Assembly (NCBI GenBank): GCA_018715665.1
Contig: DVLF01000107.1
Location: 1-26,871 of the forward strand
Direction: 5' to 3'
Length of the DNA: 26,871 nt
From: Candidatus Pelethenecus faecipullorum
Lineage (GTDB): Bacteria; Bacillota_I; Bacilli_A; Acholeplasmatales; Anaeroplasmataceae
Of the stretch, positions 20,025-25,565 are shown one piece after another. Within the stretch, counting starts at the first letter, position 1. Each line of letters begins with the position of its first letter. The notes under the pieces were generated by a model. It searched no databases and had not been told where the DNA came from. It was given only the letters and a program-made list of their open reading frames with translations. The position numbers were made by a program, and so were the translations under genes.

Positions 20025-20067
20025 GGTACGGTGTAACTCAGAAAAATGGGTTACGCCGTACCTTTTT
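20025..20067 (+). terminator. Plus-strand intrinsic terminator just inside the left end
   Basis: GGTACGGTGTAACTC / GGGTTACGCCGTACC, 15 bp with two G-U pairs on the plus strand (C-A mismatches on minus), followed by TTTTT. Confidence 0.65.
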
Positions 20068-20068
20068 G

Positions 20069-21769
20069 TTATGCTACGAAGCGGAAGTCCTGCGGGTTTT
20101 CCCGTATTTCCTGCATCATAGCAAGGATTTCCTGCTCGGTGGGAATGTCGATCATTCCCGCCGCCGTGAAGTAAATATCCACCTTCAAATAACAGTGGCC
20201 GCTCGACTTGTCGTTGTTGTGGACTTCAATGCGCTCAATCAGAGAGTTTACAAGCGCCGGGGTAAGCTTTGCAATATCCGTCAGTTCACGAAGCGTTCGG
20301 AGCAGCAGCCTTAAATCCGTAACCTTCTGCTTCGCTTCCTGCAAGGTCTTTTGACTGTCGGAAACCTCCCGCATCAGCGCTTTCTGCTCTTTTTCGTAGT
20401 TTTGAAGCATTTTGGAAAAGCGTTCATCAGAAAGTATGCCGCTTGCGTTCTGCTCGAACACCTTTTCAATCAGCCTGTCGATTTCGGCAATTCTCTTTGT
20501 GCCCTGTTCCACCGTCTGCTCCAGCCTTTTGTGTTCCTTCTGCCGCATGGCGTTTGTTTTCTTCGCCAGCATATACAGAAATACTGTTTCGTGGCACTTC
20601 ACAAACTCCGATAAACCGCTGATGGCTTCAAACACAAGCTTTTCCAGCACAACATCCCGGATATAGTGGATTTGGCAAGTTCCTCTGCCGTCCTTGTAGT
20701 TGGAACACCGCCAAAATTCCTGATTGCGTTTCAGGCTTTTTGCAGCGCAGAAATGCAGCTTTGCGCCGCAATCGGGGCAGTACACCAATCCCGAAAACAG
20801 ACTTGCTCTGCCTGTGGCGGTCGGTCTGCGGCGGTGTTTGCGAAGTTCCTGCACCCTCAGCCATTGTTCCTCCGAGATAATCGGCTCCTGCATATTCGGG
20901 ATAACCTGATGTTCCTCCGCCGGTTTGTAAATGGTTTTATGCACCTTGTAGCTGACGGTGGTGGTCTTGAAATTCACCGCACAGCCGGTGTACTGCCTGT
21001 TTTCAAGAATACCGACAACGGTTTTCTGGTCCCAACAGTACGGATTAGCCGGTACTTTCTGTGCGTGACTTCTGCCGATAGATTCATAGTAAGCAGAGGG
21101 AACAAGGATTTGTTCTTTCTCCAACTGCCTCGCAATCTGCGACGGGCCACGCCCTGCAAGGCAAAGCGCATAGATTTTGCGTACCACTTCGGCGGCCGGT
21201 TCGTCAATCAGCCATTTCTCCTTATCATTCGGGTCTTTCCTGTACCCAAACGGAACAGAAGAAGATACCCGTTTGCCGTTATCTGCTTTTGACTGCCATA
21301 CCGCACGGATTTTCTTGGAGGTCTGCGCCGCATACCACTCGTTGAAAATATTGTGGAACGGCATCATCTCCACGCCATCGCCGGTCAAAGTATCTACTCG
21401 CTCCTGTATGGCGATAAAGCGGATACCCAGCGACGGATACACCACCTGCGTCAATCTTCCCATTTCCACCTGTTCACGCCCGAAACGGGATAGGTCTTTC
21501 ACAATAATGGTGCCGATTTCTCCGTTCTCCGCCATACGCTCCATACGCATAAAATCCGGTCTTTGGAAGGTGGTGCCCGATACGCCGTCATCCACGAAAA
21601 ACATGGTGTTGGTGTATCCCTCTTTTCGGGCGAAGTCCTGCAAAATCTGCTTTTGATTCGTGATGGAGTTTGACTCCTCGTCCTTGTTGTCATCGTCTAC
21701 GGAAAGTCTACAGTAAAGCGCCGTGATTTTTTCATCTGCCTGCCCGTTTGGTTTCGTTGCTGTTGTCAT
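20069..21769 (-). CDS. Large serine recombinase, TnpX/TndX-like
   Basis: Catalytic LYCRLS, DDGVSGT, IVKDLSRFGR, PFGY recombinase domain, zinc-ribbon cysteines CPDCG and WRC...TC, coiled coil, C-terminal LIERIEVH typical of TnpX-like (DUF4368-type) proteins; AAGGAG RBS. Confidence 0.95.
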   Translation of the reverse strand: MTTATKPNGQADEKITALYCRLSVDDDNKDEESNSITNQKQILQDFARKEGYTNTMFFVDDGVSGTTFQRPDFMRMERMAENGEIGTIIVKDLSRFGREQVEMGRLTQVVYPSLGIRFIAIQERVDTLTGDGVEMMPFHNIFNEWYAAQTSKKIRAVWQSKADNGKRVSSSVPFGYRKDPNDKEKWLIDEPAAEVVRKIYALCLAGRGPSQIARQLEKEQILVPSAYYESIGRSHAQKVPANPYCWDQKTVVGILENRQYTGCAVNFKTTTVSYKVHKTIYKPAEEHQVIPNMQEPIISEEQWLRVQELRKHRRRPTATGRASLFSGLVYCPDCGAKLHFCAAKSLKRNQEFWRCSNYKDGRGTCQIHYIRDVVLEKLVFEAISGLSEFVKCHETVFLYMLAKKTNAMRQKEHKRLEQTVEQGTKRIAEIDRLIEKVFEQNASGILSDERFSKMLQNYEKEQKALMREVSDSQKTLQEAKQKVTDLRLLLRTLRELTDIAKLTPALVNSLIERIEVHNNDKSSGHCYLKVDIYFTAAGMIDIPTEQEILAMMQEIRENPQDFRFVA

Positions 21770-21855
21770 AAATCAATTCTCCTTTCCGACAACAGGGCAT
21801 AGCAAAGGCATATTCATCCTACTATACCCTATTGCCTTTTTCTATTGTGCGATGG

Positions 21856-22134
21856 TTAAATCAGGTTTTCGGACAGAATCAGTTCCTTAAATTGCTCCAT
21901 TACGCATTGCCTGCCTTTGGGATTAAAATGCGTGGAGATTTCGTAGGTTGTCCCGCCGATTTTCAGCTTGAAATCGTCCTCCCCGAAGCGGCGCAGCCTG
22001 CTGTAATCCAGACTGCGTTCTCCGCTTCGAGGCAGCATATAATCCACAAGACAAACCGGCTCGGTTTCGTCGATCGGCTCAGGCGGCAGAGCATATATAA
22101 CTTCGTTATTCGGGTAAATCTGCGTTTTCTTCAT
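21856..22134 (-). CDS. Transposon-encoded TnpW-family protein
   Basis: C-terminal KIGGTTYEISTHFNPKGRQCVMEQFKELIL matches the TnpW pattern; position directly upstream of the recombinase fits. Confidence 0.72.
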   Translation of the reverse strand: MKKTQIYPNNEVIYALPPEPIDETEPVCLVDYMLPRSGERSLDYSRLRRFGEDDFKLKIGGTTYEISTHFNPKGRQCVMEQFKELILSENLI

Positions 22135-22143
22135 ACTGCCACC

Positions 22144-23028
22144 TTACCTTTCATCACGGCTGTTTCGCTTGCGTTCAAGCCGGCGCTGATGTTCATACAG
22201 CAGTTTCAGAATGGTATCGGTCATCTGCTTCTGCGTGTAGTTCTTTGGGAAAAACGCCTTCAAATCCTGCACCTTAAAGCTGATACGCTCGGCCTGATTG
22301 GCTTTTTCCTCCGCCATAATCTCATAGATGCTGTCCGAGGAAAGCGTACCCTGCTGCGCCGCCTTTTTCATACGGATGCTCTGTGCGTGGGAAGGGGTGC
22401 AGTCGTTCAGGCTTATAGCGTCCAGCAGGATGTTCTGCTGTTCTTCGGACAGATAGGAAAGCTCAACGGCGGGGCTGAGGGCAATCACGCCCTCGTCTAC
22501 CTTTTGGAGCAGTTCGGGAACGAGATAGGTTAAGCGGATATACCGGAACACCTGGTCCCGGCTTTCATTCCGTGCTTTGCCGATTTCAGCGGCGGTGTCC
22601 GACTTTGTCGCAGCTTGCGACAAAGTTAAATCCGTCCGCTTGCCCTGCGCTTTCATTGCCTCCATTTTCATTTTGTAAGCAAAAGCTTTTTCGCTTGGGA
22701 GTATCCGTTCACGGTGGAGATTGCTGTCTACCACCGCAATCATCGCTTCGTTTCGGTCAAGGGGATAGATCAAAACAGGCACTTCGGAAAGTCCTGCTTT
22801 TATAGCGGCGTGTAGTCTGCGGTGTCCGCTAACCACTTCATATTCGTCCGTATTTTCAATCGGGCGGACGATCAGCGGACAAAGTATGCCTTGTTCTTTG
22901 ATACTTTCGGTCAGCACCTCCATATCCTCATCGTCCAGCACCTGAAAGGGATGTCCCTCAAAGGTGCGGAGCTTATCCACCCCGATATTCGCCGCCTTTT
23001 TCTTCGGCGGGTTGATTGTATTTATCAT
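22144..23028 (-). CDS. parB: ParB/RepB/Spo0J-family protein
   Basis: HPFQV, LTESIKEQGILCPLIVRP, arginine patch YEVVSGHRRLHA, DSNLHRE; ATGA overlap with the relaxase stop. Confidence 0.9.
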   Translation of the reverse strand: MINTINPPKKKAANIGVDKLRTFEGHPFQVLDDEDMEVLTESIKEQGILCPLIVRPIENTDEYEVVSGHRRLHAAIKAGLSEVPVLIYPLDRNEAMIAVVDSNLHRERILPSEKAFAYKMKMEAMKAQGKRTDLTLSQAATKSDTAAEIGKARNESRDQVFRYIRLTYLVPELLQKVDEGVIALSPAVELSYLSEEQQNILLDAISLNDCTPSHAQSIRMKKAAQQGTLSSDSIYEIMAEEKANQAERISFKVQDLKAFFPKNYTQKQMTDTILKLLYEHQRRLERKRNSRDER

Positions 23029-24377
23029 CGTTCATACCTTCTTTCTTTGTGCTTCATTGTTACGGCAATTTCCATCTGCCGCTCGGTTTCGAGCAGTTTT
23101 TCAAATCTCGGTATCTTTTCGAGAATTGCCCGTGCGATGGACAGTTCTTTTCGCAAAGGCTTGATTTTTGCGGTAATATCCCTCGCTTCGGTGTTCAGCG
23201 ATTCGCTTTTCTTATGGCGGTTTCGGTTATATATTGACTGCCTTTCCTTTTCCAAAGCGGAGATTTGCGCCCGTGTTTCGCTGATAAAAAAGGCAAGCTC
23301 CTGCGGAGAATCAATCTGCTTCTCGCACAGGAATCTGTATTCTTCAAGGGTTTTATCCAGTTTGGCAACCTCCCGCCGCATTTCGGGCGAAAGCAGGCGG
23401 GGAGCGGCAGGAGCAATATTGTTGCCTGTGATCAGCTTGCATAATTCGATAATCAGTTCAAACAATACCTGTATGCCGTCCATCTTTTTCATTTTGCGGT
23501 ACTCGATTTCAAGCAGAAGCAGCGGTGTATATTTCGGCTTATGGAACGGAACATAGCCGACATATCGTTGATTATCCAAGAGTCGTTCACGGATAGCGGC
23601 AGGCATATATTCCTTGCCCAAGCGGTCTAAGCGGACTGCCCTCTGCCAGCTCGGCGCTTTGACGGAATAGTGGGCAAAGTGTTCGTCACGCCGTATCTCG
23701 TAGCCCATATCTTTGAGGCGTATCTCAAAGGCTTTGAAGTTGGTGGACTGGGCAAGAGCGGTGTCAATATCCGCCTTTAACAGTTCACGGTGCGACACAC
23801 CGCCGCTCTGCTTCAGCCGGTATTCCTTTTTCTTCCCGCCATAAAATTCAGCTTCTTTTAAAATGCTTTTGCCGTATTCCAGACATACGGCGTCGGAGAT
23901 TTCACGGAGCCTGTGGTGATCGGAGATATGGTTTTCAAACTTCCTGCCGGTCTTAAAGGATACGGAGTTTACCACAAAATGGTTATGGAGATTATCGGTA
24001 TTGAGGTGGGTGGTAACAACAATTTCATATTCCTTGCCCCACATACGCCTTGCGGTTTCCAAGCCGATTTTGTGTGCTTCTTCGGGAGTTACTTCTCCCG
24101 TCTGAAAGCTCTGATACCCGTGATACGCCACATTGCCCCCTGTTTTACCGAAGCGCTTTTTTGTTGCTGTCATACGCTCATAGGCTCTTTTAGCGTTGCA
24201 GTTGATACCGCTGACATGCATACGCTCATCGGTCTTTCTATCATTGGAAACATACTGCAAGGCGGCGTAGAGATCGCTGTCCACATACCTTTTGTCGATG
24301 GTTTTATCGGGGTTTTCCGCATAGTCGATCACTTCCTTCAGCCTGCTTTTCACAGGCCAGTATCCCGTTGTCGCCAC
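23025..24377 (-). CDS. MOBP-family relaxase
   Basis: IDYAENPDKT (catalytic Tyr region), AYHGYQSF...EVTPEEAHKIG, 3-His motif THLNTDNLHNHFVVNSV; GTG start 1 nt after the mobC stop. Confidence 0.92.
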   Translation of the reverse strand: MATTGYWPVKSRLKEVIDYAENPDKTIDKRYVDSDLYAALQYVSNDRKTDERMHVSGINCNAKRAYERMTATKKRFGKTGGNVAYHGYQSFQTGEVTPEEAHKIGLETARRMWGKEYEIVVTTHLNTDNLHNHFVVNSVSFKTGRKFENHISDHHRLREISDAVCLEYGKSILKEAEFYGGKKKEYRLKQSGGVSHRELLKADIDTALAQSTNFKAFEIRLKDMGYEIRRDEHFAHYSVKAPSWQRAVRLDRLGKEYMPAAIRERLLDNQRYVGYVPFHKPKYTPLLLLEIEYRKMKKMDGIQVLFELIIELCKLITGNNIAPAAPRLLSPEMRREVAKLDKTLEEYRFLCEKQIDSPQELAFFISETRAQISALEKERQSIYNRNRHKKSESLNTEARDITAKIKPLRKELSIARAILEKIPRFEKLLETERQMEIAVTMKHKERRYER

Positions 24378-24378
24378 A

Positions 24379-24681
24379 TCATACCACTATCCTTTCCTTT
24401 TGCGGTAAGATAAGTTCGGCGGTTATCTCATCAATCAAAGAGATAATTTTTTCTTCCGTGTCTGCTGAGATTTTGCCTTCGCATACCACACAAAGCTCAT
24501 CTAATTTATCATTGAAAGAGAAGAATATTTCGGGTAAAACAGCTCTCGGCATATATCCCAAAGCTCGCTGCCTGAGATATTCTGATACAGAGAGACCGCA
24601 CCTTTCAGCGTTATGCTCAATCATATTTTTCTCTTTTTCGCTGACACGGATAAACAGATTTTTATTTTTAACTTCGTTCAT
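24379..24681 (-). CDS. mobC: MobC-type ribbon-helix-helix relaxosome accessory protein
   Basis: LFIRVSEKEKNMIEHNAERCGLSVSEYLRQRALG; immediately upstream of the relaxase; AAAGGA RBS. Confidence 0.85.
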   Translation of the reverse strand: MNEVKNKNLFIRVSEKEKNMIEHNAERCGLSVSEYLRQRALGYMPRAVLPEIFFSFNDKLDELCVVCEGKISADTEEKIISLIDEITAELILPQKERIVV

Positions 24682-24715
24682 AACATCAGTCCTTTCTTTG
24701 ATTTTTCAAGGGGTA

Positions 24716-24790
24716 TTAGGGGTGCCCCCTAAAGTGAAATCGGCTCTCAAAGCCGATTGGGAGGGAAACTGTCAATACAGTTTCCCTGCT
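24716..24790. other. Putative oriT region: three adjacent inverted repeats
   Basis: TTAGGGG/CCCCTAA (24716-24732), AATCGGCT/AGCCGATT (24738-24758) and GGGAAACTGT/ACAGTTTCCC (24763-24786), directly upstream of mobC. Confidence 0.6.
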
Positions 24791-24980
24791 TGTTACAGCA
24801 TACGACATCTCTGCTGTCTTTCCCGTGGGTGTTTTGCCGGTCTGCCTGAATGTCGTTTTTCTATTCCTGCCCCGGAGTCTCACCGCAGCGTTGTTTCGCT
24901 CTCTCTGCTCACACAAGAGGTCTTGGCAAAATCATATCCCATCCAGCCGGTCATTCAGTTGTAACCGGCTTTCGGGTAAC

Positions 24981-25011
24981 AAAAAAAGCCGGCACACAAA
25001 TGCGTACCGAC
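24981..25011 (-). terminator. Intrinsic terminator (attenuator) inside the mob operon leader
   Basis: Minus strand GTCGGTACGC-ATTT-GTGTGCCGGC-TTTTTTT; 10-bp stem whose three G-U pairs form only on the minus strand. Confidence 0.75.
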
Positions 25012-25247
25012 TTACCGCCAAAAGGATAAACTTATCCCTTGCGGTAGTGGCTTCACATTCATGTAACCGGCTTTGAAATTCAAAGTCGAAACTGTCCTTT
25101 ACGCTTTTCTTACTGCCGACAGTCCAAAGCAGTTTCAGAAGCGGCGGCATTTTCTCTTAGCATACCGCAGGCATTATCCGGCTCACAGCCGTCATCCCAA
25201 ATCTGTGAAGAAAGATATTCAGTTGTCGCTCTCTTTTGATATTTTTT

Positions 25248-25277
25248 ATTATACACCACAGAACAAATGTTTGTCAA
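25248..25277 (-). promoter_or_regulatory. Consensus sigmaA promoter reading into the element
   Basis: Minus strand TTGACA-18 nt-TATAAT (both hexamers perfect). Confidence 0.85.
25260..25273. promoter_or_regulatory. Candidate LexA/DinR (SOS) box
   Basis: AGAAC-AAAT-GTTTG fits the Firmicutes core GAAC-N4-GTTY with an RNRY spacer; lies in the promoter spacer, touching the -35. Confidence 0.6.
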
Positions 25278-25300
25278 TACTTCCTGAATAAGTTTTTGAA
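25272..25300. repeat. Right junction (candidate att site)
   Basis: Element arm TGTCAATACTTCCT, dinucleotide GA (25286-25287), flank ATAAGTTTTTGAA. Confidence 0.55.
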
Positions 25301-25565
25301 TATTTTTCAAAAAAGCGGAGATACTATTTTGTTTTATGCCTTGCGTAGTGAAATAGAAACCGATTCACATTTTATAATGTCGTTAAAACCTCTAATTACA
25401 ACATATAAGAATCGAAAATTAGAGGTTGAAAAAGCCTGATTTCAAGCCATTTCTAAAGCATAAACTTTGAGGGATAAGGTATAAACACCTTACCCCTCCA
25501 TTTTGCATTTGAAAGCGTTACAGGATCATTTCCTCCATTTTACCCTAGCCGCATCAATGCGGCTA
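25293..25565. repeat. Cluster of inverted and direct repeats in a gene-free spacer
   Basis: TTTTTGAA/TTCAAAAA (25293-25313), AACCTCTAATT/AATTAGAGGTT (25387-25427), GAGGGATAAGGT/ACCTTACCCCTC (25469-25498), TAGCCGCAT/ATGCGGCTA (25546-25565); direct repeat CCTCCATTTT (25495, 25532). Confidence 0.65.

Follow-up and report, generated by a model that had tools for sequence, protein, structure and literature searches.

We find that a stretch of Candidatus Pelethenecus faecipullorum DNA 26,871 nt in length (hereafter the window) carries a promoter-plus-RNA cassette of ~440 nt (25277-24832) that is probably a default-off attenuator or insulator, one that would keep the mobilization and excision genes behind it at a low level. 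This reading combines a promoter, structure selected at the RNA level, conservation among homologs, and the lack of a conserved promoter close to mobC, from which we infer termination, read-through, low expression, and a role as insulator. The cassette lies at the right end of an integrative mobilizable element of 5.3 kb (about 20043-25336, minus strand) and would serve as its 5' control region. Homology with related elements starts at 25334-25336 and stops at 20043-20063, and the promoter therefore lies ~60 bp inside the element. The downstream genes encode, in order, a NikA-like MobC, a PF03432 relaxase, a ParB_N protein, a TnpW-like protein, and a large serine recombinase with a DUF4368 domain; mobC, the first gene of the operon (24681-24379, minus strand; Pfam PF21983, E 1.4e-15), is preceded by the Shine-Dalgarno sequence GAAAGGA (24696-24690, minus strand). 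Judged by its relaxase and MobC sequences, the element is placed among the MOBP7 mobilizable elements (PMC12084326).

The element is present in one copy in this 86%-complete genome and was not found in the 60 relatives searched within its own genus and order. A relaxase-based scan of species genomes yielded 80 loci; in 36 of them a complete or almost complete leader is present at 73-100% identity, corresponding to 31 distinct sequences. At L002, from the cultured strain Solibaculum intestinale CLA-JM-H44, the leader is 99.7% identical, and a pattern scan recovered the leader region in at least 120 metagenome contigs among the matches listed. The leader region had no match in PLSDB plasmids or INPHARED phages when searched by BLAST, and none in IMG/VR viral contigs when searched by pattern scan. 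Several genomes contain two or more elements (for example, L021/L022 and L024/L038). At one locus in a chicken-gut metagenome-assembled genome (L003:897-2069), ~1.17 kb is inserted beside the promoter, and the segment corresponding to window 25307-25279 is present on both flanks.

Transcription of the cassette is expected from a sigma-70-type promoter on the minus strand (25248-25277), with TTGACA at -35 (25277-25272), an 18-nt spacer, and TATAAT at -10 (25253-25248). The promoter had been called perfect in a first-pass annotation of the window, and this was confirmed: it matches the consensus at 12 of 12 positions, and both hexamers are near-invariant across 62 homologous cassettes. The transcription start is predicted at ~25241. 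Across elements, three different promoter types stand in front of the same RNA at the same distance. The promoter region also includes a palindrome on the minus strand, AAACATTTGTTC (25261-25272, in the spacer), which is conserved as AAACAYTTGTTY in most cassettes; AAACAYTTGTTY is retained in the second promoter type with different spacing, and the third promoter type has a related ACAAATGTT just past the -10. The spacer palindrome looks like an operator. LexA was considered as the input and is unlikely in this host: the box here reads AAAC-N4-GTTC against an expected GAAC-N4-GTTC, a search for a LexA domain in this 86%-complete genome and in eight genomes of the same genus came up empty, and no such box occurs near recA, leaving LexA control unsupported.

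The ~560 nt from promoter to mobC had been described as holding no convincing gene, and the homologs confirm this, as neither the start nor the frame of the open reading frame there is conserved. A 72-aa ORF (25150-24932) retains its ATG (25150) in only 11 of 62 homologous sequences, and the lengths of 420 of 475 indel runs (88%) are not multiples of three; on this basis we rejected the 72-aa ORF, other small ORFs, and a leader peptide. We also rejected the leader as the remnant of a recombinase gene, its similarity being no greater than chance. The Rfam comparison proposed by the first-pass annotation was run on the leader and matched no family of Rfam 15: no hit over the window reached the gathering score, and with E up to 10 the best match scored 17.6 bits against a cut-off of 35, with no riboswitch or T-box among the matches.

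Several lines of evidence indicate that the leader is under selection as RNA. First, the sense strand folds better than the antisense strand, both as a single sequence (-89.5 kcal/mol, z -3.9, versus -69.3, z -2.3) and as an alignment (-167.7 versus -142.4). Second, the main helix contains 108 G-U cells and 0 A-C cells across 56 sequences, which bears out the earlier observation that pairing relies on G-U pairs specific to one strand. Third, compensatory changes accompany this bias of G-U over A-C, and the two together support the proposed selection at the RNA level. With regard to conservation and covariation, which the first-pass annotation had named as a check, the region is conserved in the 36 genome loci and the long helix described below covaries, and the local hairpin next to it shows no covariation beyond shuffles.

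The first part of the RNA is a 5' domain (25090-25191, minus strand) in which 93.4% of cells are paired, nine pairs are changed on both sides, and 0 of 500 shuffles are as good. It comprises two hairpins (25191-25179 and 25168-25144) and a stem (25143-25139 with 25106-25102), all with compensatory changes, together with a further stem (25132-25129 with 25116-25113), all on the minus strand. The loop of this last stem (25124-25118) is paired to 25096-25090 in an H-type pseudoknot; the pseudoknot helix is 96.4% paired and has three compensated pairs. The alternative helices previously noted at 25088-25136 are thus real and form this pseudoknot. The linker that follows (25089-25075) is invariant in aligned homologs. 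A long-range pairing predicted by RNAalifold between 25092-25075 and 24854-24840 was rejected, having no covariation and 213 of 300 shuffles as good.

The 3' part of the RNA is a predicted long-stem intrinsic terminator (24985-25074, minus strand) whose structure is supported by covariation, in which a 22-bp lower helix (25074-25049 with 25008-24985) encloses an apical hairpin (25040-25021). In the lower helix 99.4% of cells are paired, six pairs have changed in both partners, one such case being 25060/24998 with G-U replaced by C-G, and 0 of 500 shuffles are as good. Applied to 27 homologs, RNAalifold pairs 25074-25049 with 25008-24985 and not the local hairpin, and the minimum free energy fold of the single sequence also gives the 22-bp helix. 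Five G-C pairs (25071-25067 with 24988-24992), retained at 99-100%, abut a U7 tract (24981-24987, minus strand) that is present as a run of 6-8 T in 27 of 27 aligned homologs. The A3 tract at 25074-25072 pairs with the first three U residues of U7, and the whole 3' stem plus three U residues lies inside the zipped helix in 24 of 24 distinct sequences. As the zipped helix ends directly at U7, it is itself a long-stem intrinsic terminator, with a GC-rich stem set directly against a U tract on the transcribed strand. Termination is predicted at this stem, with the RNA 3' end at ~24982-24980, and the RNA of ~260 nt that had been proposed to run from promoter to terminator is supported. Enclosed by this helix is the long hairpin described earlier at 25013-25046, which is upheld for its inner 8 bp (25040-25033 with 25028-25021; 96% paired across homologs), its outer TACCGC/GCGGTA stem being specific to the lineage of the window.

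The length of the stem resembles that of TerR of pLS20 (PMC10325885). Both stems far exceed the 7-9 bp that are customary, both are preceded by an A tract and followed by a U tract, and both belong to a transfer operon of a Bacillota mobile element; stems of at least 15 bp are functional, efficient terminators that are resistant to processive antitermination (PMC10325885). TerR differs in being a simple hairpin of 15 bp that closes its operon, whereas the stem here is branched (22 bp plus 8 bp), stands at the operon start, and forms the 3' terminus of a conserved RNA of greater size.

The first-pass annotation had instead assigned termination to a local hairpin (24986-25013, minus strand) and had read the pairing of 25066-25074 with 24985-24993 as an antiterminator, so that the two together would form a switch. 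A pattern scan does find the terminator-like hairpin with its T run, as an alternative partner of the same 3' arm; 88.9% of its cells are paired, with no covariation beyond shuffles (280 of 500 as good). The supposed antiterminator is the base of the 22-bp helix, abutting the U tract and part of a helix that is 99.4% paired. For 25100-24981 the calculated energies are -48.3 kcal/mol for the zipped fold, -42.4 when the local hairpin is forced, and -33.7 when the 3' arm is left free; the local hairpin is thus ~6 kcal/mol less stable than the zipped fold, and a free 3' arm costs 14.6 kcal/mol over it. Both folds set a GC-rich stem against the same U7, and therefore both predict termination; according to these models there is no competitive read-through fold for the terminator region. 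Co-transcriptional folding had been another suggested check; in prefix folds the long helix lengthens one pair at a time while its 3' strand emerges, a progressive zipping. A switch between terminator and antiterminator is therefore unsupported, the zipped fold being the minimum free energy structure and both folds resting on the same U7. The alternative local fold may still matter, given that GUC 25011-25009, which is paired only in the local hairpin, is conserved.

The overall layout is that of the zipper attenuator cATT of pLS20 (PMC13401043). In both, a long leader, of 456 nt in pLS20 and 560 nt here, extends from a strong promoter to the first transfer gene. It contains a weak hairpin on the upstream side, a central stem-loop that is long and imperfect, an intrinsic terminator, and complementary flanks that extend the central stem; the counterparts here are the weak hairpin 25086-25074, the central stem-loop 25046-25013, the terminator 25013-24986, and the pairing flanks. 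The difference lies in the reach of the zipping, which in pLS20 goes no further than the terminator's 5' stem and loop, so that the 3' stem stays unpaired and antitermination is the default, a precedent that weighs against reading a zipped form as a terminator. Here it covers the whole terminator and the zipped fold is predicted not to free the 3' stem. Moreover, no conAn1/conAn2 genes for processive antitermination lie downstream here, where the NikA-like, relaxase, ParB_N, TnpW-like, and serine recombinase genes are found, and no sequence similarity is detectable.

This mirrored layout of weak hairpin, long stem-loop, terminator, and complementary flanks (PMC13401043) argues for a conditional attenuator of the zipper or riboswitch type, in which a factor would bind the pseudoknotted 5' domain or the linker 25089-25075, block both terminator folds, and thereby switch the operon on. 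The factor could be a protein of the element, a helper conjugative element of the Tn1549 type, a host factor, or a small ligand, and such a mechanism would fit the complexity and covariation of the 5' domain, the invariance of the linker, and the lack of another promoter for the operon. Nevertheless, the complementarity spans the whole 3' arm up to the U tract, so zipping rebuilds the terminator; the 3' arm has no alternative partner upstream, the only extra copy lying downstream; the element encodes no RNA-binding protein; and the Rfam search returned no riboswitch or T-box even with E up to 10. We therefore regard conditional attenuation as unlikely.

Under the default-off reading that we prefer, the consensus promoter would produce a structured, pseudoknotted RNA of ~260 nt, the 3' part of which would zip onto the upstream strand as it emerges to form a very long hairpin ending at U7. 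Most transcripts, whether from the cassette's own promoter or from host genes upstream, would stop at this hairpin, and only those reading through would cross a second domain and then oriT to reach mobC and the genes behind it (relaxase, parB, tnpW, and serine recombinase), so that the mobilization and recombinase genes would be fed by low read-through. The terminated RNA would probably be plentiful, either as a by-product or as a product itself. Regulation would more likely take place at the promoter, through the operator-like palindrome, or via a factor, and not by rearrangement of the RNA. The complex 5' pseudoknot and the second domain, which a plain terminator would not need, hint at an unrecognised input, and the conserved palindrome together with both domains shows that inputs remain to be found.

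Insulation against the host has a precedent in Tn916, where a terminator near the element end insulates the element from host transcription (PMC11658703). The cassette resembles the T1 terminator and the cis-acting antiterminator RNA canT of that element in that a terminator near the end can block host transcription and that transfer genes are controlled at the RNA level; it differs in having a strong element promoter upstream of the terminator within the same cassette, with no processive antiterminator identified. Beyond the right end of the element described here lie host trkA genes, which are co-oriented with it. A 12-bp hairpin at window 25466-25497 (GAGGGGTAAGGT ... ACCTTATCCCTC), between trkA and the element end, has no T run, and host transcription may therefore enter the element.

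Conservation continues past the terminator into a second structured RNA domain (24832-24975, minus strand), which would be present in read-through transcripts only. It contains three helices on the minus strand (24934-24926 with 24899-24892, a variable hairpin at 24919-24903, and 24890-24884 with 24874-24867), and for each of them all of 300 shuffles score worse and 1-3 pairs are compensated. The domain also includes a second copy of the terminator 5' strand (AAAGCCGGUUACA-AC-UGAAUG, 24952-24972, minus strand), with a local alignment score of 31 against 16.9 +/- 2.3 for shuffles. This copy lies downstream of the U tract and is therefore transcribed too late to prevent termination. The two direct repeats reported earlier, a 13-mer (24960-24972 and 25062-25074) and a 10-mer (24953-24962 and 25217-25226), are both exact, with a chance expectation below 0.1, and overall a 13- to 21-nt sequence has two direct occurrences and one inverted occurrence. 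We rejected the second domain as a duplicate of the first, as only the 21-nt repeat aligns. Several smaller features were observed in this part of the cassette. An open frame of eight codons (AUG AUU UUG ...) follows a GGAUGGGA stretch at window 24933-24907, just past the terminator; in most homologs it has only four codons, and CCC at 24976-24974 is able to pair with the GGG. At two loci, L109 and L194, homology to the cassette stops exactly at the terminator end (window 24982), TTAC follows the T run, and an IS200-like transposase gene (PF01797) lies 168 nt past the T run.

Between the second domain and mobC, ~45 nt of the sequence that the first-pass annotation had included in the leader are the core of an oriT, which it overlooked. 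This core (24763-24806, strand not assigned) consists of a conserved flank, GTCGTATGCTGTAACAAGCA (24806-24787), and an inverted repeat, GGGAAACTGT-ATTG-ACAGTTTCCC (24786-24763), whose 10-bp stem is invariant among close homologs. The same motif occurs in 34 loci with a relaxase only 53-59% identical, where the flank is retained and both arms are altered to GGGAACTTGT/CAAGTTCC, mostly 80-110 bp upstream of mobC. An inverted repeat with an adjacent flank near the accessory and relaxase genes is thus found clade-wide, as expected for the MOBP7 type, and we take 24806-24763 to be the oriT core, a site acting at the DNA level with a putative nick site and nicked strand. In L037 the 4-nt loop of the repeat and neighbouring bases are inverted (CTGTCAATACAG instead of CTGTATTGACAG), with the stem unchanged. 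The arrangement agrees with that of MOBP7 (PF03432) elements and the Tn1549-family oriT (PMC12084326), in which a NikA/MobC-like gene is followed by a PF03432 relaxase gene and an inverted repeat with its flank lies ~80 nt upstream of mobC. In contrast to those systems, only 24806-24763 fits here, and the 430 nt upstream are the RNA cassette, which is missing from more distant MOBP7 loci. An nhmmer profile of the leader RNA found no copy in the loci with a 53-59% identical relaxase, which have protein genes upstream of the oriT instead.

The proximity of an oriT raises the question of whether the whole region acts as DNA and not as RNA, through binding sites for the relaxosome or recombinase or as a single-strand origin for synthesis of the complementary strand after transfer. 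Single-strand origins consist of DNA that folds in a strand-specific manner beside a nick site, and a DNA-level role would be consistent with the fact that part of the region is oriT and that the 13- to 21-nt sequence recurs twice direct and once inverted. Other observations argue against it. G-T-compatible changes are found only on the mRNA-sense strand (108:0), and the conserved promoter and conserved T run frame the structure exactly. In addition, the conserved oriT flank is 3' of the repeat on the plus strand, opposite to the RNA-sense strand. Read with the nick-site layout of RSF1010/RP4, this suggests transfer of the strand complementary to the RNA-sense strand, and so of the template for the leader RNA, a putative polarity that speaks against a single-stranded-DNA role of the sense-strand structure. 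Taken together, we consider a DNA-level explanation highly improbable.

For the cassette to limit expression of the operon, mobC should have no promoter of its own, and the first-pass annotation had pointed to a separate promoter next to mobC as a possible refutation. In a scan and in the homolog alignment, no conserved promoter was found on the minus strand of 24975-24690. The best conserved candidate in this interval, CTGAAT-16-TATGAT, matches at 8 of 12 positions and is only weakly sigma-70-like, the promoter itself not being conserved, and for the TTGACA within the loop of oriT, which L037 carries in inverted form, there is no conserved -10. As no conserved promoter adjoins mobC, the operon probably depends on terminator read-through. 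The position of the cassette, with no conserved promoter from terminator to mobC, thus supports the earlier proposal that the leader gates expression of mobC, relaxase, parB, tnpW, and recombinase. Two variable hairpins with Watson-Crick-only compensated stems (24755-24741 and 24730-24718, within 24715-24756, minus strand) lie between oriT and mobC.

The cassette also appears to move independently of the genes that it precedes. In a second family of intact elements, set apart by another NikA-like protein and by identities of ~32% in the relaxase and ~42% in the recombinase, the cassette 25277-24832 is 85-90% identical, and the homology stops at 24832; the flank upstream of the promoter differs between the families. 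Conversely, some elements with a relaxase 91-94% identical have a leader that is only 76-79% identical. Cassette identity is thus decoupled from relaxase and recombinase identity, which argues for a portable functional module, and these comparisons indicate that the promoter-plus-RNA unit is exchanged in gut Clostridia among elements whose backbones are unrelated. A role of the bridge-RNA type, in RNA-guided recombination, was rejected: the RNA is near-constant while the recombinases differ, and the flank upstream of the promoter varies by family.

The exchange of promoter and RNA as one unit between backbones is also relevant to a different view of the cassette, in which the terminated RNA of ~260 nt is itself the functional product, either a trans-acting riboregulator (for example, in cross-talk or immunity among co-resident elements) or a leading-region RNA expressed early in a new host, and gating of the operon is secondary. 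Small-RNA genes are built in this way, from a consensus promoter and a strong terminator, the genomes with two or more elements (L021/L022, L024/L038) would be compatible with such a role, and the transferred strand, if its polarity is as proposed, would be the template for the RNA. We nonetheless judge this view to be decidedly unlikely, as no target was found, the links between the RNA and the rest of the element amount to no more than chance-level repeats, and conservation extends 150 nt past the terminator into sequence present in read-through transcripts only. Contigs assembled from RNA runs, which show no ends, strand, or level, cover 25019-25247 and not mobC or relaxase in studies X6 and X9; one X6 contig of this kind, equally uninformative on ends, strand, and level, also spans the promoter. 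In X4 the summed depth of such contigs, which again give no ends, strand, or level, is 2-3x higher on the RNA than on the genes.

Gut Clostridia harbour small mobilizable elements in great numbers, and little is known of how the excision and transfer genes of these elements stay quiet. The analysis defines a widespread non-coding cassette that matches no Rfam 15 family, occurs in 36 related genome loci and at least 120 metagenome contigs, and is located at the very end of the element, where it is crossed to express every element gene. Its exchange among mobilization and recombinase backbones that are unrelated to one another argues for a self-contained control device. The contrast with the pLS20 zipper attenuator, in which the same architecture has the opposite predicted outcome, makes testable the rule by which zipping terminates in one case and antiterminates in the other. 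It is also conceivable, although we find it doubtful, that the cassette 25277-24832 represents a new class of portable regulatory RNA of gut-Clostridia mobile elements, either as a pseudoknotted ~440-nt sensor whose 5' domain would read a signal (for instance, a factor from a helper conjugative element or from a co-resident sibling) that settles the passage of RNA polymerase through an otherwise fail-safe terminator, or through a 260-nt product acting in trans between elements.

Some loci in the collection depart from the intact arrangement. Several metagenome loci were initially read as having the leader directly before recombinase genes, a reading that was rejected: these are decayed elements (L125, L133, L091, L128, L119, L138, and L184) whose leader has become joined to truncated, internal pieces of serine recombinase genes (aa 244-397, 296-538, and 499-566). 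Several of their left junctions are clustered at window 24929-24940, and the junction in L184 has the microhomology CAGGCAGA. In other elements cargo lies right behind the leader, such as an HTH and AbiEii toxin-antitoxin-like pair (L117:3110-4523) and a 1240-aa YobI-like P-loop NTPase (L197:3681-7403).
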